A DNA stretch of 64,000 nucleotides from an uncultured beta proteobacterium (GCA_963780715.1 CAWADK010000002.1:21150-85149); one strand, 5' to 3'; shown: positions 6,022-49,753, numbered from the stretch's first letter. Numbers and translations are program-made. The notes: generated from the sequence alone by a model not told the origin.

Positions 6022-6822
6022 TCAGCCGGCGGCGGCCACTGCCCGCTTTGCCAGCACCGTGATCAGGTGCGCGCGATAGTCCGCCGACGCGTGCAGGTCC
6101 GTGTTGAGTCCTGCGGCCGGAACGCTGACGCCGTCGCACGACTCGGGTGCGAACTTCGCGCCGAGCTTGTCCTCGAGCGCCTTGACACGGAAGACGCCCG
6201 GCCCCGCCCCGGTGACCGCAACCCGCACGCCGCTTGCCGTCTTCGCGACGAACACACCGACCAGCGCGAAGCGCGAGGCCGGCTGCTTGAACTTCAGGTA
6301 GGCCGCCTTGGCGGGCACCGGGAAATGCACCGCCGTGATGATCTCGCCGGCGGCGAGCGCCGTCTCGTACAGACCCTTGAAGTAGTCGTCGGCGGCGATC
6401 TTGCGCCGGTCGGTCTGGATCGTGGCGCCCAGCCCGAGTACCGCGGCCGGATAGCAGGCGGCCGGATCGTTGTTCGCGAGCGAGCCGCCGATCGTTCCGC
6501 GGTTGCGCACCTGCCGGTCGCCGATGCCGCCCGCAAGCTGCGCCAGTGCCGGAATGCGCGACTGCACGTCCTTGGAGGCGGCAACCGCGGCATGCGTCGT
6601 CATCGCACCGATGACGACATTGTTGCCGTCGTTGCAGATGCCCTGCAGTTCGGTAATGCCCGCCAGGTCGATCCAGCCGGAAGGTGATAGCAGACCGAGC
6701 CGCATCGACGGCAGCGTCGACTGTCCGCCGGCCAGGATCTTGTCGTCGCCATGCTGGCCGGCGAGCTTGACAGCGTCGGCCACCGAGGCGGGGCGGTGAT
6801 AGTGCATTGCTTCCATCGTCAT
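6022..6822 (-). CDS. molybdo-hydroxylase FAD-binding (medium, CoxM-like) subunit
   Basis: 266-aa ORF containing ...ILAGGQSTLPSMRLGL...; located downstream of the large subunit. Confidence 0.85.
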   Translation of the reverse strand: MTMEAMHYHRPASVADAVKLAGQHGDDKILAGGQSTLPSMRLGLLSPSGWIDLAGITELQGICNDGNNVVIGAMTTHAAVAASKDVQSRIPALAQLAGGIGDRQVRNRGTIGGSLANNDPAACYPAAVLGLGATIQTDRRKIAADDYFKGLYETALAAGEIITAVHFPVPAKAAYLKFKQPASRFALVGVFVAKTASGVRVAVTGAGPGVFRVKALEDKLGAKFAPESCDGVSVPAAGLNTDLHASADYRAHLITVLAKRAVAAAG

Positions 6823-6835
6823 CTCCTCAGTGCCG

Positions 6836-9202
<2,367 letters not shown>

Positions 9203-9210
9203 CGCGCCTC

Positions 9211-9678
9211 CTACTTCATCGCCGCCGCGCCCTGCGCGACAGCCTTGACGATGTTCTGGTAGCCGGTGCAGCGGCACAGGTTGCCTTCCAGTCCCTCGCG
9301 GATCTGCGTGTCGGTCGCGTGCGGGTGATGCTGCACGAGATCGATCGCGCTCATCACCATGCCCGGCGTGCAGAAGCCGCACTGCAGCCCGTGGCAGGCC
9401 TTGAACGCGGCCTGCATCGGATGCATGCCTTCGGCCGGCGTGATGCCCTCGATCGTCGTGACCTCGGCGCCGGCCATCTGCAGCGCCAGCACGTTGCAGC
9501 TCTTGACTGCGCGGCCGTTGACATGAACGGTGCAGGCGCCGCACTGCGCCGTATCGCAGCCAACATGCGTGCCGGTCAGGCCAAGCTGCTCGCGCAGCAG
9601 CGTTACGAGTGAAGTTGATGGATCAACGTCGGCCGAAACGGCCTTGCCGTTGACCCGCAGCGAAAGCGGGACAGGCAT
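9211..9678 (-). CDS. (2Fe-2S)-binding small subunit (CoxS-like)
   Basis: 155-aa ORF with cysteine motifs [11 protein letters not shown] and CGFCTPGM; lies 8 nt upstream of the large subunit. Confidence 0.9.
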
Positions 9679-9886
9679 CCAAGTCTCCTTCGGAGGTTTT
9701 CTTATGCCGCCTTCTGCGGGTGGGCGGCCGAGCGTTGGACATTAACAGCAGCGAAAAGCCGGGCGCAACCGTCGTCGAGTGACATCGCGGCTTTCCGGCG
9801 GTATGGCGCGGCGCAGCACGCCTCGTCCTGGCGCAATAGAATGGAAGCTACTCAGTCTGCACACCGGCCAGGCGCCGGTCAGCCCC

Positions 9887-10885
9887 ATGGACAGCGTCGA
9901 CCTGCAGGTATTGAAGAAAGCCGACGAATGGCTGCGCGCCGGCCATGGTGCCGTCATGGGCACGGTGGTCAGGACCTGGGGTTCGGCCCCGCGGCCGGTC
10001 GGTTCGCTGGTCATCATCCGCGACGACGGGCTCGTTGTGGGTTCGGTCTCGGGCGGCTGCATCGAAGACGATCTCGTCGATCGCGTGCGCCGCCGCGCGG
10101 CAGCGGCAGTGGTCCCTGAGCGGGTCAAGTACGGCGTCACGGCCGACGAGGCCTTCAAGTTCGGCCTGCCCTGCGGCGGCACGATCGAACTCGTGCTCGA
10201 GCCGCTCGGCCCCGGCGCGCAGATCGATGTACTGCTGGAGAACGTCGCCGCCGGCCGGCACACTGTTCGCACGCTCGACCTGCGCAGTGGTGTCGTCACA
10301 CTCGCCGAAGGCGACGGTACCGATGTGCTCGACTGCAACGACGCGCGGCTCATCACCGCGTTCGGACCGCGCTGGCGACTGCTGGTGATCGGCGCCGGCC
10401 AGCTCACGCATTACGTCGCGCAGATGGCGCTGGCGCTCGACTACGCGGTGACGATCTGCGATCCACGCGAGGAGTACGCCGACGGCTGGCTCGTGCCCGG
10501 CACGCAGCTGGTGCGCACGATGCCCGACGACACCGTCACCGAATTCCGGCCCGACAAGCACACGGCGATCGTGGCCTTGACGCACGATCCGAAGCTCGAC
10601 GATCTTGCGCTGATGGAGGCACTGAAGTCCCAGGCCTTCTATGTCGGTGCGATCGGCTCGCAGAAGAACCAGGCCAAGCGCAAGGAGCGCCTGAAGGAGT
10701 TCGGCGTCAACGCCGAACAGCTCGAGCGCCTGCATGGCCCGGTCGGGCTCAAAAATGGCGCTCGCACGCCACCCGAGATCGCGGTGTCGATCCTCGCCGA
10801 GATGACGGCGACCAAGTACGGCTACCGCGTGCCGGCACCGGTGGCGCCCGGCCCGCGCTCGACGGTCGCCGGCTGCGTTTCGTGA
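9887..10885 (+). CDS. XdhC/CoxI-family Mo-cofactor insertion accessory protein
   Basis: From the ATG at 9887: MDSVDLQVLKKADEWLRAGHGAVMGTVVRTWGSAPRPVGS...SGGCIEDD. Divergent from the coxSLM-like operon. Confidence 0.85.
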   Translation: MDSVDLQVLKKADEWLRAGHGAVMGTVVRTWGSAPRPVGSLVIIRDDGLVVGSVSGGCIEDDLVDRVRRRAAAAVVPERVKYGVTADEAFKFGLPCGGTIELVLEPLGPGAQIDVLLENVAAGRHTVRTLDLRSGVVTLAEGDGTDVLDCNDARLITAFGPRWRLLVIGAGQLTHYVAQMALALDYAVTICDPREEYADGWLVPGTQLVRTMPDDTVTEFRPDKHTAIVALTHDPKLDDLALMEALKSQAFYVGAIGSQKNQAKRKERLKEFGVNAEQLERLHGPVGLKNGARTPPEIAVSILAEMTATKYGYRVPAPVAPGPRSTVAGCVS

Positions 10886-13319: not shown

Positions 13320-15040
13320 TCAGAGCGCAAACACGAACACGCTGTTGCCGCGCTTGAAGTCGAGCTGGGTATTGCCTCCGCAGCCCATCGCGATGTACTG
13401 CTTGCCATTGACCATGTAGGACACCGGCATCGCGTTGGCGCCGGCGCCGCAGTTGAAGTTCCAGAGCTTCTTGCCGGTGGCGGAATCCAGTGCGTTGAAG
13501 CTGCCGTTGCCCTCGCCGAAGAAGTACAGGCCGCCTGCCGTCGCCAGCCCGCCTCCGATCAGCGGCTGCTCGGTGTCGTGCTTCCACTTCACCTTGCCGG
13601 TGTCGACATCGACCGCGGCCACGCGGCCCCACTGCTTCTCGCTCGGGATCACCTTGAAGGCGCCGCCGAGCCAGAGCTTGCTGCCGCCGGGGTACTTCGC
13701 CGCCTCGACGTGATAGGTCATCGGCTGGTGCAGGTTGAGCGCAATCGCGAGCCGGGTCTTCGGGTCGAAGCTCATCGGTGACCATTCCACGCCACCATTG
13801 GCGCCCGGCAGCATGCGCGCGCCTTCAGCGGTCGGCAGCACCCACATGTTCTCCTGCGGGATCATCGCTTCCGAGAAGCGGATCAGGTTGCAGTTCGAGC
13901 GATCGTGCACGTAGACATGCCCGGTCTTGCCGCCGTGGAGCACGCCCGGAATCATCTTGCCGGACTTGTCCTTGACGTCGACCAGGATCGGCGGGCTCAC
14001 GGCGTCGAGGTCCCACACGTCGTGCGCGACATACTGCGAATGGCACTTGTAGGTGCCCTTGTCGAGATCGATCGCCACCAGCGAATCCGTGTACAGGTTG
14101 TCGCCGGGCCGCTCCGCGCCATACAGGTCAGGCGAGGGGTTACCGACGACGAACCACACCGTGCGGGTCTTCAGGTCGACCGACGGATTCATCCACACGC
14201 CGCCGCCGAGCGTCTGCCAGAACGAACTGTCCTTCGCGAATGCCGCCTTTTCCGCCGCGATGTCGCGCTTCATGTTGCGGCCGGTCAGGTCGTTCTGGGC
14301 CCAAACGCCCTCGTGACCCTTTTCGGGGATCGTGTAGAAGGTCCACAGCAGCTTGCCGTCGTCGGCGTTGTACGCCTTGACGAAGCCGCGGATGCCGTAT
14401 TCGCCACCGTTGGTACCGATCAGCACCTTGTTGTCGACCACGGTCGGCGCCATCGTCTCGCTGTAGCCCTTCTCCGGGTCGGCGATCTCGATGTTCCAGA
14501 GCACGTTGCCGGTCTTGGCATCGAGCGCAACGAGGCGCGCGTCGAGGGTGCCCATGAAGACCTTGCCGCCGGAGATCGCAACGCCGCGGTTATTGGGCCC
14601 GCAGCAGAAAGTCGTGACCGGCCCCATCTTGTGCTTGTAGTGCCAGAACTGCTTGCCGGTCACGGCGTCGATGGCATAGATGTGGTTATACGAAGTCGTC
14701 AGGTACATGACGCCATCGACGACGATGGGGGCCGTCTCCATCGATTCCACGACCTCGGTCTGGAACACGAAGGCCGGCCGCAGGTTCTTTACGTTGCCGG
14801 CGTTGATCTGGTTGCCGCCGTAGTAGCGCGTCTGCGCGTAGTCACCGTTGGTGTGCAGCCAGTTGGCCGTCTGCCCGCCAGCGCTGTTCAGCTGCGCCTG
14901 CGTGACATTGACTGCCTTCGGCACCCCGGCCGCCGCGGCGCCCTTCTGCCCCTGCACTTCCTGTGCGATCGCGCCGAGGTCGCGGCAACCGCCGCGACGC
15001 CCAGGACGAGTGTTCTGATGGAGAAAAATCTGCTCTGCAT
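13320..15040 (-). CDS. PQQ-dependent dehydrogenase, methanol/ethanol family (Asp-x-Asp, lanthanide-type signature)
   Basis: The mature part is in ORF 13320..15884: vicinal CC in [15 protein letters not shown] at 14004-14015, propeller W-motifs. The signal peptide [23 protein letters not shown] starts at the ATG at 15040 in another frame, with the break at ~14975-14990. Confidence 0.85.
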
Positions 15041-15278
15041 GCTGTCCCCCTGCCCTTTGTCTTATTGTGAAGCGCGATGATGCGACGCCGACCCTTGGCG
15101 ACGCGGGTGATGTCACCGCAACGCGCGGTGCAAAAATCTTGCAACCGCCACCCATACCCGGTGTTGGTAGTGTCCTTATCGCCGGGCCCGCAGATAATAG
15201 GCGGCGAATGGCGTCGGCGGAACAGCCACACCCCGAAAAGAGGGGACGCCGCGCTTGTGTAAGGGAGGAGATCGGTCC

Positions 15279-15929
15279 ATGAAACAGATTCGCTGCATTG
15301 CAGCAGCCCTTTTGCTGGTCGTGGGATCCACGTCGGCCCAGCAACGCAACATCAATTTCGACCTGCTGCAGGCGGCGCGGAGCGGGTCTGTCGCAACGAC
15401 CGCCGCGCTGCTCGATCAGGGCGCGAATCCGAACTCGCGCAACCGTCTTGGCGATACGCCGCTGAATACCGCCGCGCGCAACGGCAACATCGAACTGGTC
15501 AAGCTCCTGCTCGAACGGGGCGCCGACGTGAACCTGCCCAACCTGGCGCGCGTTACGCCGCTGATGAGCGCCGTGTACGGCGGCCATACCGATGTCGCGC
15601 GCACGCTGCTCGCCGCCAAAGCCAGTGTCGAGCCCAGCGACCGGATGGAGAAAACCGCGATGATCTACGCCGCCGGCAACGGCAACGCCGAGTGCGTCGC
15701 CGCACTGCTTGCCGCCGGCGTCGGCGTCAATCAGAAATACGCCAACGACGCGACCGCGCTGATGTGGGCAGCGGCCTACGGCAAGAACGACAGCGTGAAG
15801 CTGCTGCTCGAACGGGGCGCCGACGTTGCGGCGCGTGACAACCGGGGTGAATCTGCACTTTCGATCGCTGTCGCCGAGAAGCATGCCGAGGCGGCCGCGC
15901 TGTTGCGCGCCGCCGGCGCCGGGAAGTAG
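15279..15929 (+). CDS. secreted ankyrin-repeat protein
   Basis: [22 protein letters not shown] signal peptide, then ~5 ankyrin repeats ([28 protein letters not shown]...). Confidence 0.85.
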
Positions 15930-16003
15930 GACGTCTTGATCTTCTCTCAGCCAGGTCGCTTCAGTCTCTGCCGCAATCCGGGCGCCGTCGGCAGCGCGCT
16001 CTC

Positions 16004-23755: not shown

Positions 23756-25836
23756 ATGACCCGCCGCAGCCTCTTTGTCACCACCGCCCTGCCCTACGCC
23801 AACGGCCCGCTGCACGTCGGGCCACATCATGGAATACATCCAGGCCGACATCTGGGTGCGATTCCAGAAGATGCGCGGCCACGCCGTTCACTTCGTCGGC
23901 GCTGAAGACGCGCACGGCGCGCCGATCATGATTGCGGCCGAGCGGGCCGGAAAGACACCACAGCAGTTCATCGCCGATGTGCGCGCCACTCGGCCGCGTT
24001 ACCTCGACGGCTTCCACATCGGCTTCGACCACTGGCACACGACCGATTCGCCCGAGAACGTCGAGCTGTCGCAGTCGATTTACCGCGCCCTGAAGTCCGA
24101 CGGCCTCATCGATACGCGGACCATCGAGCAGTTCTACGATCCCGTGAAGGGCATGTTCCTGCCCGACCGCTACATCAAGGGCACTTGTCCCAAGTGTGGC
24201 GCGAAGGATCAGTACGGCGACAACTGCGAAGTGTGCGGCTCGACCTATGCGCCGACCGACCTGATCGAGCCCTATTCCGTGCTGACCGGTGCGCGACCGG
24301 AACTGCGCAGTTCAGAGCACTACTTCTTCCGCCTGGCGGATCCACGCTGTGTCGAGTTCCTGCGTGCATGGACCTCGGGCCGCAACCGGCACGGCGAGGC
24401 GCACCTGCAGCCGGAGGTCTATGCCAAGACGCAGGAGTGGCTGGGACCGGACGGCAAGGGTCTCGCGGACTGGGACATCTCGCGCGACGCGCCCTTTTTC
24501 GGCATCCCGATTCCGGACGCCGCCGACAAGTTCTTCTATGTCTGGTTCGACGCACCGATCGGCTACCTGGCGTCGCTCAAGGACTACTTCGCGAGCGGCA
24601 AGGCAAAGGCCAACGGCGAGCCGCGGAGCTTCGAGCGAATTCGTCACCGCCGCCGATGTCGAGCAGATCCACTTCGTCGGCAAGGACATCATTTATCACC
24701 ACACGCTGTTCTGGCCGGCGATGCTGCACTTCTCGGGCCGCAAGGTGCCGGACAACATCTACGTGCATGGATGGATCACTGTCAGCGGCGAGAAGATGAG
24801 CAAGAGCCGCGGCACCGGCATCGATCCGTTGCGTTATCTCGAACTCGGCATGAACCCCGAGTGGTTCCGCTACTACGTCGCCGCCAAGCTCAACGGACGC
24901 GTCGAGGACGTCGATTTCAACCCGGACGACTTCATGCAGCGGGTCAACAGCGACCTGATCGGCAAGTACGTCAACATCGCCAGCCGGGCGGCGAGCTTTT
25001 TGGTCCGCCAGTTCGATGGCCAGCTTGCACCGTCGGGTGATGCGTCCACTGGCAGCCTCGCGGTGGCGCTGGCCTCCGCCGACGACATCGCCATGCAACT
25101 CGACCAGCGCGAGTTCGGCAAGGCGCTGCGCGAAATCATGCGCATCGCCGACTACGCCAACGAGCACTTCGACCGCATGAAGCCATGGGAACTCGCCAAG
25201 GACCCGGCAAGCCGCGATCTGCTGCAGGGTGTCTGCAGCGATGTGCTGCGCTGCTTCCGCGTGCTGACGATCTACCTGACGCCGATCCTGCCCGCGACCT
25301 CCGAACGAGTCGCGCGCGAACTCTTCGGCATGAATCGGCCGTTCGCGTGGTCGGATCTCACCGCTGCTCCCGAACGCATCGCCCCTTACAAGCACCTGAT
25401 GACCCGCGTGGAAACCAAACAGATCGACGCCCTGTTCGAACCTCCCGCCGAGGCCGAGCCGGCCAAGCCCCTGCCGGGTGGCGCTGCCATTGCCGACACG
25501 ATCACGATCGACGACTTCGCCAAGCTCGACTTTCGCATCGCGAAGATCGTCACCGCATCGCACGTCGATGGCAGCGACAAGCTGCTCAAGCTGACGCTCG
25601 ACGCCGGCGAAGGGCGCGAGCGCACAGTCTTCTCGGGGATCAAGTCGGCCTACAAGCCGGAGGACCTGGTCGGGCGACTCACGGTGCTGGTCGCGAATCT
25701 CGCGCCGCGCAAGATGAAGTTCGGCGTCAGCGAAGGCATGGTGCTCGCCGCCAGCCACGCCGACGAAAAATCCAACCCCGGGATTTTTCTGCTCGATCCG
25801 CACCCGGGCGCGCAACCCGGCATGCGCGTCAAGTAG
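23756..25836 (+). CDS. metG: methionine--tRNA ligase; two frame breaks in this assembly
   Basis: ATG at 23756 gives [20 protein letters not shown]. It continues in ORF 23775..25040 (zinc knuckles CPKCG...CEVCG) and ORF 24289..25836 (KMSKS, C-terminal tRNA-binding domain). Breaks are at ~23819-23821 (GGG run) and ~24625-24640. Confidence 0.9.
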
Positions 25837-26093
25837 CGCTCTCCGCCTGACGCACGCCCCAGGCGCCTGCCGGGGGTAAAAGCGCCACCGCTCGAAACGG
25901 CCGGGCCGAGCACGTCTGCCCGATGGCCGCGCGTCAGCAGGCCTCCTAGGTTCCCGTGCAGGGCGATTGCCGCCGCGGCATCTGCCTCGTGCCCTGCCGC
26001 GGCTTGACCGCGATCAAACGCAGGTGCATCGCGCGGCAGTCATCGCCTTCAATTGCCAGTCGTTCGGCGACAATTCCGGCATTCGCTTTTGAT

Positions 26094-26116
26094 GCACATA
26101 TGATTAACATATGCGC
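26094..26116. promoter_or_regulatory. candidate operator: imperfect inverted repeat GCACATATG-ATTAA-CATATGCGC in an AT-rich patch
   Basis: 9-nt arms with 8/9 complementarity and a 5-nt spacer. It lies 26 nt upstream of the RHH gene start and is the only AT-rich stretch in the 305-nt metG/RHH intergenic region. Confidence 0.35.
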
Positions 26117-26141
26117 ACCTGACGATCGCTCATCAACCGCG

Positions 26142-26372
26142 ATGCCTGCCAAGACAGAGTCCAAGACTGCACGCCTGACGCTGCTGCTCGATCCGCGCAA
26201 GAAGGCGATGTTCGAGCAGATCTGCGCGGAGCACGACCTGACGCCGTCGCAGGTCGTGCGACAGCTGATCCGCGAGTACATCATCGAGCACTCGGGCAGC
26301 CGCCCACTGCCGCAGTGGCTGATCGTCGCGTCCAAACAGGCGAGCAACCGGCGCCGGACACACAAGCCGTGA
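26142..26372 (+). CDS. ribbon-helix-helix (CopG/Arc-like) small protein
   Basis: 76 aa from the internal ATG of ORF 25956..26372: MPAKTESKTARLTLLLDPRKKAMFEQICAEHDLTPSQVVRQLIREYI. This is a beta-strand followed by two helices. Its stop codon overlaps the GTG of the next gene. Confidence 0.65.
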   Translation: MPAKTESKTARLTLLLDPRKKAMFEQICAEHDLTPSQVVRQLIREYIIEHSGSRPLPQWLIVASKQASNRRRTHKP

Positions 26373-28388
26373 CTGCCCCGGCCGACTGGCTCGCCATCGA
26401 CTGGCTGCTGGCCGCGATCGCCGCGTGGATCGCCATCGGCGCGGCGGGCATGGTGCGGCCGCACGGCTTCTACGTCGTAGCGCGCATCCTTTTCCCGCTG
26501 GGCGCGCTGGTCAGCATCACCGTTGCCGTCTGCGCCGCGATCGCCGTGCGTCGGCACGCCTGAGACCGCCGTGCTGCCGCTGGGCCTGCCGGGCCTGCCG
26601 TTCCACCTTCGGCTCGACCCGCTGTCGGCTTTCTTTCTGCTGATCCTCGGCAGCGCCAGCGCCGGCGTCTCGGCCTTTGCTTCAGGCTACTTCCGCAAGG
26701 GCGAGGGCACGCCACCGGGGTTGCTGTGCCTGCTGTATCACCTGTTCCTCGCCAGCATGGCGATGGTGCTGCTGGCCGACGACGCCTATGTCTTCATGGT
26801 GATGTGGGAGCTGATGGCGCTGTCGTCGTTCTTCCTGGTGACAGCCAACCATGTGATTCCGGAAATCCGGCGCGCCGGCTACCTCTACCTGCTGATCGCG
26901 CACATCGGGGCGCTGGCGATCCTGCTCTGCTTCGGAGTGCTGCAAGCCAACACCGGGGACTACACCTTCGCCAACATGCGCGCGCAGGAGCTGACGCCGT
27001 TCTGGGCCTCGGTCGCATTCCTGCTGGCCTTCTTCGGCTTTGGTGCCAAGGCAGGCATCGTTCCGTTGCACATCTGGCTGCCCGAAGCGCACCCGGCGGC
27101 GCCCTCGCCGGTGTCGGCCCTGATGAGCGGAGTCATGCTGAAGACCGCCATCTATGGTCTGCTGCGCATCGGATTCGAAGTGCTGCAGACTCAACTCTGG
27201 TGGTGGGGCGTACTGGCACTGGCGATCGGGCTGGTGACGGCGCTCTTCGGCGTCGTCTTCGCCGCGATCCAGACGGACATGAAGCGCCTGCTGGCCTACT
27301 CATCGATCGAGAACATCGGGTTGCTCGTCGTCGGCATCGGACTGGCGATGCTCTTCGTCAGTTACGGCATGGCACCGATGGCGGCCCTCGCGCTCACCGC
27401 CGTGCTCTACCACGCGCTCAACCACGCGTTCTTCAAGAGCCTTCTCTTCCTCGGCACCGGCGCCGTGCTGCACGCCACGGGAGAGCGCAACCTCGGCAAG
27501 CTCGGCGGCCTGCTGCGCTTCATGCCGTGGGTCGGCTGGCTCTCGCTCGCAGGCGCGCTGGCCGCGGCCGGCCTGCCGCCGCTGAACGGCTTCGTGTCCG
27601 AGTGGCTGCTGCTGCAGAGTTTCCTCTTCACGCTCGGCCTCAAGAGCACGTTCGTCAACAACCTCGTGCCCGTCGTCGCGGCGGGTATTGCGCTGGTCGC
27701 CGCGATCGGCGGCTATGTGATGGTGAAATTCTTCGGTGTGATCTTCCTGGGACAGCCGCGCGAGGCGCGGCTCGCGGCTTCGCATGACGCCGTCTCGTGG
27801 GAGCGGGCCGGACTCGTGTGGCTGGCGATCGGCTGTGTCGCACTCGGCCTGTTCCCCGCCCAGGTCATTGCGCTGATCGACCCGGTCACACGGACTCTGG
27901 TCGGCGACGGCATCGGTCCGCAGGTTGCGGCCCACGGGTGGCTCATCCTCGCCCCGGTCGACCCGGACCGTGCCAGCTACAGCCCGTTGCTGTTCCTGCT
28001 GCTGATGGCGACGAGCTTCGCACTCGCGTTCGTGCTCGTGCGCTGGCTCTACCACGGTCGCGTGCGGCGCGCCGCGCCGTGGGACTGTGGCTACCCGCTG
28101 CAGACCGCGCGCATGCAGGACACCGCCGAGGGCTTCGGGCAGCCGATCCGCCAGGTGTTCGAACCTTTCTTCCGCATCGAGCGGCACCTGCCGACTCCCT
28201 TCGACAAGCAGCCCTACTACCACCTCGCCGCGGGCGATCACTTCTGGCACTGGCTGTATCTGCCGGTGGCGCGCCTGACGGAGGCGACGTCGCGCGTGGT
28301 CGGAATGCTGCAGCAAGGCCGGATCTCGACCTACCTGATGTACAGCTTCGTCACGCTGCTCGTGATGCTCGTGCTGGTGTTCCGATGA
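26369..28388 (+). CDS. hyfB: HyfB-like (NuoL-type) antiporter-like membrane subunit; one frame break
   Basis: GTG at 26369 (VTAPADWLAIDWLLAAIAAWIAIG...) joins ORF 26523..28388 near 26550. About 672 aa, the same as E. coli HyfB, with proton-translocating subunit motifs (WLPEAHPAAPSPVSALMSGVMLK). Confidence 0.85.
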
Positions 28389-29332
28389 CCGTCTACAACG
28401 TCATTGCCCAGGTGCTCGCGATCCTGCTCGCGGTGCTCGGCGCGCCCTTGCTCACCGGGTGGGTCAACCAGTGCCGCGCCTGGCTGCAGAACAAGAGCGC
28501 ACCGCCGCTGCTGCTGCCCTACCGGACGCTGCACAAGCTGTTCTGGAAGGAATCGGTCGTCGCCGAGAACGCGAGTCCGCTGTTCCGCATCGCGCCCTAC
28601 ATCATCTTCGGTGCGATGGTCCTCGCCTGCAGCATCGTACCCATCCTGTCGACGGATCTCCTGCTCGCTCCGGCCGCCGACGCGATCGCGCTGGTGGGAC
28701 TTTTCGCGCTGGCACGGGCCTTCATCGCGCTGGCCGCGATGGACATCGGCACCGCGTTCGGCACGCTCGGGGCGCGCCGCGAGATGCTGGTCGGCTTTCT
28801 TGCCGAACCAGCGCTGCTGATGGTGCTCTTCACCGCGGCGTTCCTGACACAGTCGACGTCGCTCGCCAACATCGTCGAAACGATCGCCAACCAGCCGTTC
28901 GCGATCTACCCGAGCCTGGCCTTCGCAGGGGTGGCCTTCACGATGGTGGCGCTGGCTGAAAACGCCCGCGTTCCGGTCGACAACCCGGCGACGCACCTCG
29001 AACTGACGATGATCCACGAGGCGATGATCCTCGAGTACTCCGGCCGCCACCTGGCACTCGTTGAGTGGGCCGCAAGCCTGAAACTCTTCGCCTACTCGAG
29101 CATCGGGCTTGCGATCTTCTTCCCATGGGGCATTGCGCACGGACACGATCCGCTCGGCATGCTGCTGGCAGCACCGGCCCTGATCCTGAAGCTCGCGGTC
29201 GGCGGCGCGGTGCTGGCGCTGATCGAGACCTTGTCCGCCAAGATGCGGATCTTCCGCGTACCCGAATTTCTCGCCGGCGCCTTCCTGCTGGCAGTGATCG
29301 GCATCCTCGTGCACTTCCTGCTCGGAGCCTAG
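28385..29332 (+). CDS. hyfC: HyfC/HycD-like (NuoH-type) membrane subunit
   Basis: 315 aa from MTVYNVIAQVLAILLAVLGAPLLTGWVNQ; contains ENARVPVDNPATHLELTMIHEAMILEYSG; ATGA overlap with the previous gene. Confidence 0.85.
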   Translation: MTVYNVIAQVLAILLAVLGAPLLTGWVNQCRAWLQNKSAPPLLLPYRTLHKLFWKESVVAENASPLFRIAPYIIFGAMVLACSIVPILSTDLLLAPAADAIALVGLFALARAFIALAAMDIGTAFGTLGARREMLVGFLAEPALLMVLFTAAFLTQSTSLANIVETIANQPFAIYPSLAFAGVAFTMVALAENARVPVDNPATHLELTMIHEAMILEYSGRHLALVEWAASLKLFAYSSIGLAIFFPWGIAHGHDPLGMLLAAPALILKLAVGGAVLALIETLSAKMRIFRVPEFLAGAFLLAVIGILVHFLLGA

Positions 29333-29338
29333 GTCACG

Positions 29339-29998
29339 ATGCCAAGTCTGGTTACGCAGCTGATCAACCTGTTCGCGGCGGTGCTGCTGCTGCTGTCGTT
29401 CGGGCTGCTGGCGCAGCGTCGCGTGCTGTCGCTGATTCATCTCTTCACGCTGCAGGGTCTCGTGCTGGCGGCGTCGACGACCACCATGGCCTACTTCACC
29501 GGCCAGCCGCACCTGTACTGGTCCGCCGCGATCACGCTCGTGCTGAAGGTCTTCCTGATGCCGTGGCTGCTGCACCGGATGATCGAGCGGCTGAATGTGC
29601 GCTGGGACGTCGAGACGCTGATCAACATCCCGACCACGATGCTGATCGGCATCGTGCTGGTCATCTTCTCCTTCAACCTCGCGCTGCCGATTTCCGGACT
29701 GTCGCAGTCGGTGGCGCGCGGCACGCTCGGCATCGCGCTCGCCTGCGTGCTGCTGTCGTTCCTGATGATGATCACGCGCACCAAGGCGATCCCGCAGGTG
29801 ATCGGCTTCCTCGCGATGGAAAACGCGCTGTTCTTCGCCGCGACCAGCGCCACCTACGGCATGCCCATGGTGGTCGAACTCGGCATCGCGCTCGACGTGC
29901 TGGTGGCGCTGATCATCCTCGGCGTGTTCATGTTCCAGATCCGCGAGCAGTTCGACAGCCTCGACATCCGGCATCTCGAGAAGCTGAAGGAAGAGTGA
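29339..29998 (+). CDS. hyfE: HyfE-like (NuoK/J-type) membrane subunit
   Basis: 219-aa polytopic ORF (E. coli HyfE has 216 aa). Its stop overlaps the next start. Confidence 0.8.
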   Translation: MPSLVTQLINLFAAVLLLLSFGLLAQRRVLSLIHLFTLQGLVLAASTTTMAYFTGQPHLYWSAAITLVLKVFLMPWLLHRMIERLNVRWDVETLINIPTTMLIGIVLVIFSFNLALPISGLSQSVARGTLGIALACVLLSFLMMITRTKAIPQVIGFLAMENALFFAATSATYGMPMVVELGIALDVLVALIILGVFMFQIREQFDSLDIRHLEKLKEE

Positions 29999-31456
29999 TG
30001 GAAGCGCTGCTCGCCATCCTCGGAATCCCGCTCGTCGGCGCCGCCGTCCTGGGCCTCATCGGCCACCAGGACCGTGCCTCGGAAGTCAACGTGGCCTTCA
30101 GCCTGGCCACCTTCATCGCCGCGGCGGTGCTGACGATCCAGATCATCGCCGACGGACCGATCCTCGTGCTGCACGAACAGTTCTTCGTCGACTCGCTGAA
30201 CGTCTTCCTGGTGGCGCTGACGGCGCTGGTTGCCTTCACCACGGCGCTCTTCGCACGCCCCTACATGCGCATCGAGCGCGACCACGGCAAGATGACCCCG
30301 CCGCGCATGCGGCTCTTCCACAGCATGTACCAGCTCTTCAGCTTCACGATGCTGCTGGCGCTGACGACCAACAACATGGGGCTGCTGTGGGTCGCGATGG
30401 AGGCGGCCACGCTGGCCACCGTGCTGCTGGTGGCCGTCTACCGCACGCCGGCCAGCCTCGAGGCCGCCTGGAAGTACTTCATCCTGTGCGGCGTCGGCAT
30501 CGCGCAGGCGCTGTTCGGCACGATCCTGCTTTACCTCGCGGCCGAACGCGTCATCGGCGCCGAGGGCCGCGGCCTGCTCTGGACCTATCTCGATGTGGCG
30601 AAAGGGCAACTCGAACCCACGGTGATCTCGCTGGCGTTCGTGTTCCTGCTGGTGGGATACGGCACCAAGGTCGGCCTCGCGCCGCTGCACAACTGGCTGC
30701 CCGATGCGCACGCAGAAGGCCCGACGCCGATTTCTGCCGTTCTCTCTGGCCTGCTGCTGAACGTCGCGCTCTACGCCGTACTGCGTTGCAAGGTGCTGAC
30801 CGACGGTGCACTCGGCACCCGCTTCGCCGGCGACCTGATGATGGGCTTCGGCCTGCTCTCGGTGGTGCTGGCGGCGTTCTTCATCTCGCGCCAGCGCGAC
30901 ATCAAGCGCATGTTCGCGTACTCGTCGATCGAGCACATGGGACTGATCACCTTCGCCTTCGGCATGGGCGGCCCGATCGCGAGCTTCGCCGGGCTGTTGC
31001 ACATGACCGTGCATTCGCTGGTGAAGTCCGCCATCTTCTTCGCGGTCGGCCACGCAGCGCAGAAGGCCGGCACGCAGGTGATGGACCAGATCCGCGGCTT
31101 GATCCGCGTGAATCCCACCGTCGGCTGGGGCCTGATGGTGGGCACGCTGGCGATCCTCGGCATGCCGCCCTTTGGCGTGTTCGCCAGCGAGTTCCTGATC
31201 CTGACCACGGCGATGCGCGAGTTCCCGTGGACCACGCCGTTCCTTCTGCTGGCACTTGGCGTTGCCTTTGCGGCAGTGCTGTCGAAGGTGCAGCCGATGG
31301 TCTTCGGCGAAACCACCGTGAAGCCGCTGGCGCATCCGCCGGCGCTGGTGCCGGTCTTCGTGCACCTCGGCCTGGCGCTGTCTGCTGGGCCTGTACATCC
31401 CGCCGTATCTCGAAGGCTGGTATCAGCAGGCGGCTCGCCTGGTCGCCGGAGGCTGA
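29998..31456 (+). CDS. hyfF: HyfF-like (NuoN/M-type) antiporter-like subunit; one frame break near the 3' end
   Basis: MEALLAILGIPLVGAAVLG... lies within ORF 29065..32130. After ~31380 the sensible C-terminus (LLGLYIPPYLEGWYQQAARLVAGG*) is in another frame and ends at the TGA at 31454-31456. Confidence 0.85.
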
Positions 31457-31459
31457 ACG

Positions 31460-33019
31460 ATGACCCGGCTGCAGACCGAATCCGGCGAACTCACGTTCGA
31501 GCACATCCGCGGTGCCGCGCCGGTCGGCTGGACAACCGTGGACACCGCGCAGTGGCGCGCGGCCGCGCAGGCGCTGGCGCGCGAGGGTGCCACGCTCGTT
31601 TCGCTGTGGGGCTCGGACCGGCACGATCTGGGCGATGGCCTGGCCATCATGGCGGCGTACTCGCGCGGCGACCGGTTGCTGTGCGCGCGCCTGCTGCTCC
31701 GTGCGAGTCCCTACGAATTTCCCTCGATCAGCGACGAGTTCCCGGCCGCCAATCGAATGCAGCGTGCACTTTACGACCTGCTCGGCGCCCGCGCACTGGG
31801 CGATGGCGACGAGCGCACGTGGCTGCGCCAAGGCGCCTGGCCGGCGGACTTCTTCCCACTGAGGCGCGACGCCGATGGCGCCCGTTCCTTCGCGTCGGAG
31901 CAGGAACACTACGCATTCGTTCCGGTGACCGGCGACGGCGTGCACGAGATCCCGGTCGGTCCGGTACATGCCGGCATCATCGAGCCGGGTCACTTCCGCT
32001 TCTCCGTGGTCGGCGAAAAGGTGCTGCGACTCGAGGAGCGCCTGGGTTTCGTGCACAAGGGCATCGACAAGCGCTTCGAGGGCATGCCACTGGACGACGC
32101 GGTCCGCCTCGCGGGGCGCGTGTCGGGTGACTCGACGGTCGCTTATGCCTGGGCGTATTCGATGGCGGTGGAGTCTGCCGCTGGCGTGACCGTCCCCGCG
32201 CGCGCGGCCTGGCTGCGGGCGCTATTGCTGGAACGCGAGCGCGTCGGCAACCATCTCGGTGATCTCGGCGCACTCGGCAACGACGCGGCGCTCGCCGTCG
32301 GGCTCGCTCACTTTTCGAGGTTGCGCGAACGGTGGCTGCGGGCCAATGACGAAGCCTTCGGCCATCGCCTGATGATGGATTGCATCATCCCCGGCGGCAT
32401 ACGGTCCGACCCCGACGCCGGCGGGCTCGAGCAGCTACGGCGTCAGTGCAGCGAACTCGCCGCCGAGGTGATGACGTTGCGCACGATCTACGACGAGCAC
32501 CCCGGACTGCAGGATCGCTTCCTGAACACCGGCGTGGTCACACCGGAACTCGCGGCGCAACTCGGTCTGCGTGGTCTCGCCGGACGCGCCAGCGGCCAGG
32601 CGCGCGATGTGCGCGTCGATGCGCGACCGGCACCTTACGATGCACTCGACGTCAAGGCCGCGGCGGACCGACGTGGCGACGTCGCGGCCCGCGTAGCGGT
32701 CCGCTTCGATGAAATATTCGAGTCGCTGCGGCTGATCGAGATCATCGTGCAAAGGCTCCCGGCGGGCGATGTGCACTGTGCGATTCCGCCAGTGGCCAGC
32801 GACGGCGTGCTCGGCGTCGGCTGGGTGGAAGGCTGGCGCGGCGACGTACTGGCCGCGGTGGAGGTGGCGACGGACGGACGCCTGCGGCGCTGCCATTGCC
32901 ACGATCCGTCCTGGCAGAACTGGCCGGTGCTCGAACACGCGGTGATCGGCAACATCGTTCCCGACTTTCCGCTGATCAACAAATCCTTCAACCTGAGCTA
33001 CTCCGGAGTGGACCGCTGA
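31460..33019 (+). CDS. NuoC-NuoD fusion / group-4 [NiFe]-hydrogenase large-subunit homologue lacking all Ni-Fe cysteine ligands (Ehr-type)
   Basis: 519 aa, colinear with HycE/HyfG. The L1 motif RxCGxCxxxH reads RVSGDSTVAY (32117-32146). The L2 motif DPCxxCxxR reads NLSYSGVDR (32990-33016), and the protein ends at that Arg. Confidence 0.9.
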   Translation: MTRLQTESGELTFEHIRGAAPVGWTTVDTAQWRAAAQALAREGATLVSLWGSDRHDLGDGLAIMAAYSRGDRLLCARLLLRASPYEFPSISDEFPAANRMQRALYDLLGARALGDGDERTWLRQGAWPADFFPLRRDADGARSFASEQEHYAFVPVTGDGVHEIPVGPVHAGIIEPGHFRFSVVGEKVLRLEERLGFVHKGIDKRFEGMPLDDAVRLAGRVSGDSTVAYAWAYSMAVESAAGVTVPARAAWLRALLLERERVGNHLGDLGALGNDAALAVGLAHFSRLRERWLRANDEAFGHRLMMDCIIPGGIRSDPDAGGLEQLRRQCSELAAEVMTLRTIYDEHPGLQDRFLNTGVVTPELAAQLGLRGLAGRASGQARDVRVDARPAPYDALDVKAAADRRGDVAARVAVRFDEIFESLRLIEIIVQRLPAGDVHCAIPPVASDGVLGVGWVEGWRGDVLAAVEVATDGRLRRCHCHDPSWQNWPVLEHAVIGNIVPDFPLINKSFNLSYSGVDR

Positions 33020-33534
33020 TGCTGCTGCTGGCCCGACAGATACTCAGGACGGGCATCTGCACCGAGCCGTCGCCCGAGCCAAACGACGACTGGCGCGTGG
33101 CCGGCGAGCGGATCCAGGCCGACGTCCTGGCGCTGCTGGGCCGCGCGCTGGCGATCCGGCAGGTCGATGCCGGGTCGTGCAACGGCTGTGAACTCGAAAT
33201 CCATGCGCTCAACAATCCCTACTACAACCTTGAAGGCCGCGGGCTGCACTTCGTGGCGAGTCCACGTCACGCCGACATGCTGCTGGTCACCGGCCCGGTG
33301 GCGCGCAACATGCGGGTCGCGCTGGAGCGCACCTACGAGGCCGTGCCCGAGCCGAAGCTGGTCGTGGCGATCGGTGACTGCGGCTGCAACGGCGGCATCT
33401 TTGGCGAGAGTTATGCCAGTTGCGGCAAGGTTGCCAATGTCATTCCGGTCGATGTCGCCGTACCCGGGTGTCCGCCGCGGCCACTGGAAATTCTGCGCGG
33501 CATCCTGACTGCCGTGCATCGCCTGAAGGCTTGA
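33019..33534 (+). CDS. NuoB/HycG-type small subunit with [4Fe-4S] ligands retained
   Basis: 171 aa from MLLLARQ (residue 42 of ORF 32896..33534). Cysteine motifs are GSCNGCE, GDCGCNGG and PGCPP. ATGA-type overlap with the large subunit. Confidence 0.85.
   Translation: MLLLARQILRTGICTEPSPEPNDDWRVAGERIQADVLALLGRALAIRQVDAGSCNGCELEIHALNNPYYNLEGRGLHFVASPRHADMLLVTGPVARNMRVALERTYEAVPEPKLVVAIGDCGCNGGIFGESYASCGKVANVIPVDVAVPGCPPRPLEILRGILTAVHRLKA

Positions 33535-44838: not shown

Positions 44839-49752
<4,914 letters not shown>

Positions 49753-49753
<1 letters not shown>

Follow-up and report, generated by a model that had tools for sequence, protein, structure and literature searches.

The absence of a Ni-Fe site from membrane complexes of the kind described here has already been published, and the complexes concerned go under the names Ehr, Hyq and 'incomplete Hyf'. 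In Azorhizobium caulinodans, the hyqRBCEFGI operon encodes an 'endo-hydrogenase' built from six structural subunits, which are homologues of NuoL, H, J, M, C::D and B (Sprecher et al. 2012, PMC3357923). Its large subunit HyqG, of ~504 residues, was described in 2012 as a NuoC::NuoD fusion without both CxxC motifs, a Ni-Fe site in it being 'uncertain, if not unlikely' according to its authors, and an N2-type cluster is provided for by four Cys of HyqI (PMC3357923). The hyq operon is NifA-dependent, with a NifA-box and sigma-54 elements upstream (PMC2650096). Ehr complexes are group-4-like, with large subunits that lack the CxxC motifs, and their function is unknown (PMC4378227, PMC6349859, PMC10284858, PMC7894505); their definition goes back to Coppi 2005 and Marreiros et al. 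2013, works cited in PMC6349859, PMC7894505, PMC10284858 and PMC4378227. An 'incomplete hydrogenase-4' (hyfBCEFGI) was annotated in Cupriavidus metallidurans CH34 (Rmet_4666-4671) and C. necator H16 (H16_A2196-A2201), and the genome authors judged it unlikely to serve lithotrophic growth (PMC2864759). Literature searches for the locus tags H16_A2196-2201 and Rmet_4670 found only the CH34 genome paper, and those for an established function, a structure or recent functional work on the Ehr class found none resolving its function. Here, we describe a member of this class in a stretch of 64,000 nucleotides (hereafter the window, with positions counted from its first letter) from an uncultured beta proteobacterium (GCA_963780715.1 CAWADK010000002.1:21150-85149). 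An initial annotation had pointed out that a hydrogenase-like large subunit in the window lacks its metal ligands and had implied that this was new, but the same observation had been made for HyqG (PMC3357923) and Ehr (PMC4378227, PMC6349859, PMC10284858).

The protein is very probably the large subunit of an Ehr-class, Hyq-type complex rather than of a [NiFe]-hydrogenase, with its Ni-Fe chemistry lost. The class is widespread and its presence in this genome is ordinary. The gene and the sites that matter most are as follows.

31460..33019, + strand: EhrL/HyqG-like large subunit, 519 amino acids, a NuoC-NuoD fusion without Ni-Fe ligands
32117..32146, + strand: former L1 motif R220-V-S-G-D-S-T-V-A-Y229, which replaces R-x-C-G-x-C-x-x-x-H
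32282..32284, + strand: Asp275, a family-specific Asp aligned with Asp139 of T. thermophilus Nqo4
32990..33016, + strand: former L2 motif N511-L-S-Y-S-G-V-D-R519, then stop, which replaces D-P-C-x-x-C-x-x-R/H

The large subunit combines a NuoC-like domain (PF00329, residues 26-140) with a NuoD-like one (PF00346). Its score against PF00374 (NiFeSe_Hases) was 19.9 bits, under the gathering cut-off of 25.8, and all NCBIfam models of NuoD and hydrogenases fell far under their cut-offs, the best of them being NuoD NF004739 (192 bits against a cut-off of 360; TIGR01962 reached 140 against 459). Among solved structures, phmmer identified Escherichia coli HycE (7z0s_E) as the closest relative, with E = 1.9e-63 between residues 76-519 of the query and 102-549 of the chain. 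More distant matches were MbhL (1e-29), T. thermophilus Nqo4 (9e-28) and MbsL (2e-24). No structure of the Ehr/Hyq class was found in the PDB copies searched. A monomer model obtained with AlphaFold2 from 49 homologues had a good overall fold (predicted template modelling score, pTM, of 0.84), and Foldseek queried with this model also returned HycE 7z0s_E at the top (TM-score 0.82), followed by NuoCD chains; the top matches among those listed were 17-29% identical. Both searches bear out the annotated colinearity with HycE/HyfG.

When aligned with HycE, R-V-S-G-D-S-T-V-A-Y lies over R-V-C-G-I-C-G-F-A-H and N-L-S-Y-S-G-V-D-R over D-P-C-Y-S-C-T-D-R. The cysteines of C-G-I-C face S222 and S225, and those of C-Y-S-C face S513 and G516. 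The codons read from the DNA verified both the loss of the four ligands and the coordinates first given for the motifs: S222 is TCG at 32123-32125, S225 is TCG at 32132-32134, S513 is AGC, G516 is GGA, and R519 is a CGC ending at 33016. The TGA that follows (33017-33019) shares its last base, 33019, with the start codon (ATG) of the downstream gene. The Ni-Fe ligand substitutions were present in all 120 of the 120 best protein clusters and are shared by at least 598 genome loci, which were confirmed by scanning species-representative genomes with two conserved peptides. Residue conservation was counted over 80 species-level loci drawn from these. E175, R220, G223, D224, D275, D482 and N511 were found in 80/80, and nearly invariant were Y514 (79/80), G516 (78/80), Ser or Thr at 225 (78/80), S513 (72/80) and S222 (71/80). 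Position 229 is occupied by Tyr in 50 loci, Phe in 19 and His in 11, and distant Cys-less representatives mostly retain His there; Tyr229 of the window protein appears to be a local state. A substitute Cys-based metal site was also sought. The candidate stretch C478-H-C480-H (C478-H-C-H481, 32891-32902) is invariant in close relatives but varies in the wider family (RVHPHD, RYYPRD), with Cys at 478 in 51/80 loci and at 480 in 16/80, and was rejected as a family-wide site. H481 aligns with a conserved Arg of hydrogenases and NuoD, and C-H-C-H lies on the strand of that Arg.

The large-subunit gene was in a single frame relative to every reference, and its ratio of nonsynonymous to synonymous substitution rates (dN/dS) was 0.13 and 0.14 in comparisons with two relatives (93% and 86% protein identity, respectively). 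The conservation of the substituted residues, together with the intact frame and these ratios, goes far beyond chance and shows that the gene is not decaying; the replacement residues in the former Ni-Fe motifs are under selection themselves. Describing the pocket as repurposed is therefore reasonable, and indel errors do not explain the substitutions, both as first proposed. Such errors do occur elsewhere in the window, in metG and in two genes of the operon that holds the large subunit, each involving a single base.

~24635: frameshift in metG (gene at 23775-25836)
~26520-26550: frameshift in the ehrA N-terminus
~31380-31400: frameshift in the ehrD C-terminus

In ehrA, the N-terminal ~55 amino acids are in a different frame, and the gene is in a single frame from 26556 to 28349 relative to a Paraburkholderia reference. 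In ehrD, an extra base relative to reference locus L003 leaves the final 25 codons out of frame. These breaks fit indels of long-read assembly and not pseudogenes, and the occurrence of one of them in metG, an essential gene, points to assembly indels rather than to gene decay. Two further ehrA frameshifts suggested by reference locus L002 were rejected, as the isolate genome L019 shows that the errors are those of L002. Similar breaks were seen in other genes of the related metagenome contigs L001 and L002 (ENA). Likewise, the open reading frame (ORF) at 48968-49753 (261 amino acids) encodes no more of a class I tRNA ligase than its anticodon-binding domain and is probably another indel-broken gene.

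To describe what replaced the metal site, 73 Cys-less representatives were compared with 15 representatives that contain the cysteines. Position 224 is Asp in 90% of the Cys-less and 0% of the Cys-containing representatives, position 275 is Asp in 86% of the former and Gly in 87% of the latter, and position 516 is Gly in 93% and Cys in 100%, respectively. D482 is invariant in the Hyq-type clade, and Cys-containing sequences have Ser there. On this evidence, the pocket has turned markedly acidic (E175, D224, D275, D482 and D518). The large subunit also aligns with Nqo4 without gaps over residues 164-445 at an offset of 136 (phmmer), which places D275 on Asp139 of Nqo4.

The end of the protein tells of an older event. 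The deposited HycE chain continues for 32 residues beyond the Arg aligned with R519, in keeping with the 32-residue propeptide of HycE. The 15 cluster representatives with all four Cys (ER.CG.C..SH ... ELCY[SA]C.DR; representatives of 50%-identity clusters) all end at this same D-R. Since these Cys-containing relatives already lack the extension, the propeptide was lost before the metal site. Cys-less family members end in Leu in 72/80 species-level loci and in Arg in 0/80, and a terminal Arg was found in 22 of 119 close protein clusters. The missing propeptide is thus ancestral and the terminal Arg a local state. The initial annotation was right that the ORF stops directly after the Arg of the cleavage site, and the special weight that it gave to this ending is not warranted. 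A neighbour-joining tree of 94 sequences (distance-based, rooted on HycE and without support values) placed the Cys-containing sequences as a basal grade and the Cys-less ones as a large nested clade, with the window protein inside this clade as sister to the alphaproteobacterial (Hyq) clade. The Ehr position, among Cys-less sequences and adjoining group 4f, is the one recovered here. This topology places the origin of the Cys-less lineage within group-4 hydrogenases whose C-terminal propeptide was already missing. It also means that the four Cys replacements, initially counted as independent, go back jointly to a single old lineage. A second, divergent Cys-less Ehr-like cluster lies directly upstream of the main one in L015 (684-2884), L047 (1384-3551) and L076 (227-4365), whose hosts are Methylibium, Aquabacterium and a Nitrospirota genome; its large subunit is 33-38% identical. 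In L015 and L047, the small subunit of this second cluster still begins with a fused ferredoxin-like domain, and the large subunit ends FDLSYCGNDL.

The alphaproteobacterial members of the family (L077, L079 and L083, the last with 504 amino acids) end in ...PLCNKSFNCSYSGHDL, with Cys at -13 and -7. In a protein of 504 residues these are positions 491 and 497, matching exactly the Cys-491 and Cys-497 reported for HyqG (PMC3357923), and a third Cys lies at the column of window G273 (~258). The link to A. caulinodans Hyq is thus drawn from published residue numbers and from these homologues. The three Cys regarded as invariant in Hyq (258, 491 and 497) correspond to G273, I506 and L512 of the window protein, and Cys occupies these columns in only 13, 13 and 3 of the 80 loci.

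The gene directly downstream encodes the partner subunit.

33019..33534, + strand: EhrS/HyqI-like NuoB-type small subunit (PF01058) with four [4Fe-4S] ligands

EhrS matched MbhJ (E = 5e-37) and HycG (E = 2e-34), and its C54 (33178), C57 (33187), C121 (33379) and C151 (33469) align with the cluster ligands of both, in agreement with the initial statement that the small subunit retains its [4Fe-4S] cysteines. These residues are conserved in 77/77, 77/77, 77/77 and 75/77 homologues, respectively. The three nearest Cys-containing relatives for which loci were fetched all carry, in addition, a 2x[4Fe-4S] ferredoxin (Fer4) module, which is a separate gene of 114 amino acids between the large and small subunits in L085 and is fused to the small-subunit N-terminus in L086 and L087. 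No ORF with two CxxCxxCxxxC motifs was found within the fetched flanks of 84 loci of the family. The N-terminal ~20 residues of EhrS, MLLLARQILRTGICTEPSPEP, align with the N-terminus of the ferredoxin module of L085, MWRLLFKTLRTGVVTERTPAP, and the alignment shows that EhrS lacks the ~90-column cluster-binding core of the fused Fer4-NuoB proteins. The match is short and suggestive of the scar of an internal deletion. The Ehr/Hyq lineage appears to have deleted the 2x[4Fe-4S] NuoI/HyfH-like core, and it kept the ligands of the N2-type cluster.

Pfam searches and tblastn against three references resolved the layout of the remaining operon and of a small gene upstream of it.

26082..26351 (within ORF 25956-26372), + strand: RHH_9-like small ribbon-helix-helix (RHH) protein, a possible regulator
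~26369..28388, + strand: EhrA/HyqB/HyfB-like antiporter-like subunit of NuoL type (PF00361 Proton_antipo_M, E = 4.7e-49)
28385..29332, + strand: EhrB/HyqC/HyfC-like NuoH-type subunit (PF00146 NADHdh, E = 4.7e-32), 69-89% identical to the references
29339..29998, + strand: EhrC/HyqE/HyfE-like small membrane subunit (NuoK/J-like), 219 amino acids, 71-95% identical and in the same position in the references
29998..31456, + strand: EhrD/HyqF/HyfF-like antiporter-like subunit of NuoM/N type (PF00361, E = 1.3e-52)

A chain of Glu and Lys residues is retained in the two antiporter-like subunits and the NuoH-like subunit. Specifically, E144, K224, K255, K353 and E408 of EhrA (L019 numbering) are kept in at least 93% of 57 homologues, EhrB has many Glu, Asp and Arg that are invariant across 64 homologues, and EhrD keeps E135, K224, K343 and E398. 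The best solved-structure matches of EhrD were MbsH, MbhH and NuoM, with MbsH first, and its residues 1-468 are 96.6% identical to those of L003. EhrC gave no match in the Pfam scan; its conserved residues are K70, E161 and E180. Of the five operon junctions, three have overlapping start and stop codons, among them that of the ehrA stop codon with the ehrB ATG, and the other two leave 3-6 bases between the genes. The gene order A-B-C-D-L-S was identical in all 80 loci. The hosts of these loci belong to Beta-, Gamma- and Alphaproteobacteria, Acidobacteriota and Nitrospirota, and include Burkholderiaceae, Paraburkholderia, Burkholderia, Gallionella, Thiobacillus, Methylibium and Steroidobacter, as well as Lysobacteraceae, Methylococcales, Acidithiobacillus, Granulicella, Nitrospirota, Rhodoblastus and Hyphomicrobiaceae.

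The Burkholderiales operons are found consistently beside apbC and metG. These two genes, the RHH_9 protein, response regulators and a SulP transporter (7 loci) were the only recurrent flanking genes. The RHH protein is 67% identical to an L002 gene with PF19839 RHH_9 (tblastn), and its homologues, encoded on one strand or the other, adjoin the cluster in at least 10 loci; like hyqR, the protein may regulate the operon. The stop codon of its ORF (25956-26372) appears to overlap the probable start of ehrA. The SulP-family anion transporter (~540-710 amino acids) lies directly upstream of ehrA on the same strand in L011, L026, L057, L058, L075, L078 and L080 (two copies), from Thiobacillus, Rhodocyclaceae and Methylococcales, and is absent from the window. 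This adjacency could hint at a link with anion or bicarbonate transport, or with ion coupling. Among the ORFs scanned in the 64-kb window, there were no hyp or other Ni-handling genes and no nif or fdh genes. The other scanned ORFs are housekeeping genes such as polA, uvrD, scpA, bamE and holA, along with a mod-type ABC transporter. A molybdenum hydroxylase cluster of aerobic type (large molybdenum-cofactor-binding and FAD-binding subunits and an XdhC-like maturation factor) and a pyrroloquinoline quinone (PQQ)-dependent dehydrogenase are found at 6022-10885 and 13320-16001. They are more than 10 kb from the Ehr operon, on the opposite strand save for the XdhC-like gene, and have no apparent link to it.

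Taken together, these six subunits make up a complex that is under purifying selection and looks assembled, with one Fe-S cluster, a remodelled acidic pocket beside it and an intact charge chain for ion translocation, and without Ni-Fe ligands or relay clusters. We lean, with a little better than even confidence, towards a complex-I-like membrane machine of six subunits, derived from a group-4 hydrogenase and acting as a single-cluster, redox-coupled ion translocator. More tentatively, and with rather less than even confidence, the residue and gene patterns suggest that it couples electron transfer between a carrier and quinone to the movement of ions. The cluster of EhrS would be reduced or oxidised by a partner docking directly at the face equivalent to that of NuoI, the likeliest partner being a soluble low-potential carrier such as ferredoxin or flavodoxin. 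The cluster would then exchange electrons with a substrate held in the acidic, oxygen-lined pocket at the interface of the large, small and NuoH-like subunits. This substrate would most likely be a membrane quinone, an economical guess because the hosts are quinone-respiring aerobes and because the pocket has the Asp of complex I. Redox-linked protonation of the pocket would drive, or be driven by, ion translocation through the membrane subunits, and the reaction could run in either direction.

Several observations weigh against this proposal. The positions of Nqo4 Tyr87 and His38 are G223 and I174 in the window protein, so that both quinone ligands are absent; therefore, any quinone would need another binding mode. 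In complex I, protons are donated at the quinone site beside cluster N2 by Tyr87 and by the His38/Asp139 pair (PMC5552823). The parallel with NuoD drawn in the initial annotation thus stands for Asp139, which matches the invariant D275, and fails for the other two residues: the pocket has acquired the Asp of complex I without converging on its quinone ligands. In the AlphaFold2 model, the predicted local distance difference test score (pLDDT) is below 50 at residues 147-199, 274-277 and 489-519. As these segments form the pocket and the subunit interface, the former Ni-Fe cavity cannot be inspected in the model. In EhrD, residue 255 (30760-30762) is Asn in place of the Lys that MbhH, MbsH and NdhD have in transmembrane helix 8 and that EhrA also has, which makes the pumping competence of EhrD uncertain on sequence grounds. 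The electron partners are guesses. When the flanking ORFs of the 80 loci were clustered in search of a consistent partner (Fdh, ferredoxin, hyp or nif), none was universal. Finally, the hyq deletions of A. caulinodans, the sole experimental work on an orthologous operon, led their authors to conclude that the complex itself takes up and evolves H2 (PMC2650096, PMC3357923).

Part of the same evidence would fit a redox-independent cation or proton antiporter or ion module, Mrp-like, in which the large and small subunits form a cap and the cluster is structural or regulatory. The complex has lost its catalytic metal site as well as its NuoI-like electron wire, no functional feature is better conserved than the membrane charge chain, and a SulP transporter lies directly upstream in seven loci. 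However, cluster ligands that are invariant in 77 homologues and a pocket with family-specific invariants are hard to square with a structural cap. Moreover, Mrp antiporters function without any NuoB/NuoD-like module. Given both sides, we regard an antiporter of this kind as unlikely.

A second alternative keeps the architecture of the carrier-to-quinone machine and sets its direction. Driven by the proton-motive force, the complex would oxidise quinol at the pocket and deliver the electrons, uphill and by way of the single cluster, to ferredoxin or flavodoxin, thereby supplying low-potential reductant in aerobes, for instance to nitrogenase in diazotrophs. The NifA dependence of hyq, with its NifA-box and sigma-54 elements, would suit this role, as would hosts that are respiring aerobes and microaerophiles. 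The hyq-dependent H2 evolution seen when the quinone pool is highly reduced (PMC3357923) would also be expected of a greater electron supply to nitrogenase. On the other hand, the Burkholderiales operon sits beside apbC and metG with no nif context, ferredoxin docking and quinol oxidation enter this scheme as suppositions only, and the direction of a reversible machine is not readable from sequence. We therefore give such a dedicated reverse role a low probability.

A third alternative is an unconventional but genuine hydrogenase, an H2:quinone oxidoreductase ('endo-hydrogenase') with a thiolate-free or otherwise unorthodox site. Deletion of hyqRBCEFGI alters H2 recycling and microaerobic H2 evolution in A. 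caulinodans, where the operon depends on NifA (PMC2650096, PMC3357923); the window protein falls in the Hyq clade and shares its operon order, and the pocket is conserved and not degenerate. Nevertheless, the four Ni-Fe ligands are gone, the Hyq Cys 258, 491 and 497 are not shared, so that there is no family-wide thiolate set, PF00374 scores under its cut-off, and the hosts include many ordinary aerobes, among them the Burkholderia cepacia complex. The cells in which the H2 phenotypes were recorded had active nitrogenase, and since nitrogenase makes H2 these phenotypes could be indirect. This explanation is improbable in our judgement, and still more so its specific form in which a non-thiolate metal or cofactor bound by S222, D224, S/T225, D275, H479/H481, D482 and S513, in the conserved pocket beside the retained [4Fe-4S] cluster, activates H2. 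If it were true, Hyq/Ehr would be a new class of Cys-free, O2-compatible, ion-coupled hydrogenases common in aerobes and the hydrogen phenotypes of Azorhizobium Hyq would be direct; beyond the published genetics, nothing here supports it.

Two last alternatives are refuted and retain next to no probability. A sequencing artefact or decaying hydrogenase pseudogene, which the frameshifts in metG, ehrA and ehrD might bring to mind, is at odds with the conservation data, namely a large-subunit gene in one frame, substitutions shared by at least 598 loci and by 119 protein clusters, and a dN/dS of 0.13. A NuoCD subunit of an alternative respiratory complex I, in line with NF004739 as best NCBIfam model, with PF00346 and PF00329, and with homologues that are often named 'NADH-quinone oxidoreductase subunit C', fails on family cut-offs and operon content: 192 against 360 bits, E = 1.9e-63 for HycE against 9e-28 for the NuoD type, no Tyr87 or His38, and six genes with no equivalent of NuoA, E, F, G or I among them.

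The finding recognises an already published class (Ehr, Hyq or 'incomplete Hyf') in another Burkholderiales genome and by itself changes little. Nonetheless, the class is very common in aerobic bacteria of soil and water (at least 598 species-level loci), including culturable Burkholderia, Paraburkholderia and Cupriavidus, and constitutes a sizeable blind spot in bioenergetics with a contested claim of H2 handling. Its homologues are named inconsistently and in part wrongly: members of the P0137 and P0121 clusters are labelled 'hydrogenase large subunit', 'Hydrogenase-3 subunit E', 'NADH-quinone oxidoreductase subunit C' or 'hydrogenase expression protein HypE'. H2 metabolism inferred in metagenomes from such labels will be wrong. 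For experiments, the gained Asp224, Asp275 and Asp482, the match to Nqo4 Asp139, the excised ferredoxin core with the single remaining cluster, and the absence of the 'Hyq-invariant' cysteines outside the alphaproteobacterial clade offer handles.

Among known systems, the Q-module of complex I (NuoB/NuoCD; Nqo6/Nqo4) shares with the window complex the loss of Ni-Fe, an N2-type cluster, the Asp at D139 and the charge chain. It differs in having Tyr87 and His38 and in its NuoI, A, J, E, F and G, all absent here, and the window large subunit is nearer to HycE than to any NuoD. The proximal-cluster motif of EhrS is CxxC, as in hydrogenases. In NuoB, the corresponding motif is a tandem CC. The MBS complex has ~13 subunits, a NuoI-like subunit among them. 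MBS/Mbx of Pyrococcus (PDB 6U8Y) is also a group-4 descendant that no longer makes H2, and its MbsH resembles EhrD but its MbsL is distant from EhrL. Hyc/Hyf of E. coli (formate hydrogenlyase, PDB 7Z0S) have the same fold but keep the four Cys, and HycE also has a 32-residue propeptide. The group-4 [NiFe] relatives without the extension (L085, L086 and L087), probably of HydDB group 4f, have the same fold, the A-B-C-D-L order and a ...D-R end without propeptide, and share the flanking context LINKSF-x-L-x-Y-x-x-x-D with the family. They differ by keeping the four Cys, by Gly at 275, by having no Asp at 224 and by their 2x[4Fe-4S] module. The hyfBCEFGI operons of Cupriavidus show the six-gene composition within Burkholderiales, a likeness drawn from genome annotation. 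Geobacter sulfurreducens ehrA-D, ehrL and ehrS (GSU0739-45), compared by published composition, combine the same kind of large subunit without Ni-Fe Cys with a [4Fe-4S] small subunit and NuoL-, NuoH- and HyfE-like subunits. The window operon likewise has a Cys-less group-4-like large subunit, a NuoB-like small subunit with its ligands, and two antiporter-like, one NuoH-like and one HyfE-like gene, as in Ehr; the Ehr label is broad and also covers clades with Glu or Asn at the second ligand position or with a retained ferredoxin domain. The window protein is ~44-48% identical to the Hyq clade, from which it differs by Tyr229 in place of the alphaproteobacterial His, by a terminal Arg in place of Leu, and by an operon beside apbC/metG instead of one linked to nif. 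In gene content, Hyq of A. caulinodans matches the window operon in all six structural genes and in their order, with no HyfA, HyfD or HyfH (Ng et al. 2009, PMC2650096).

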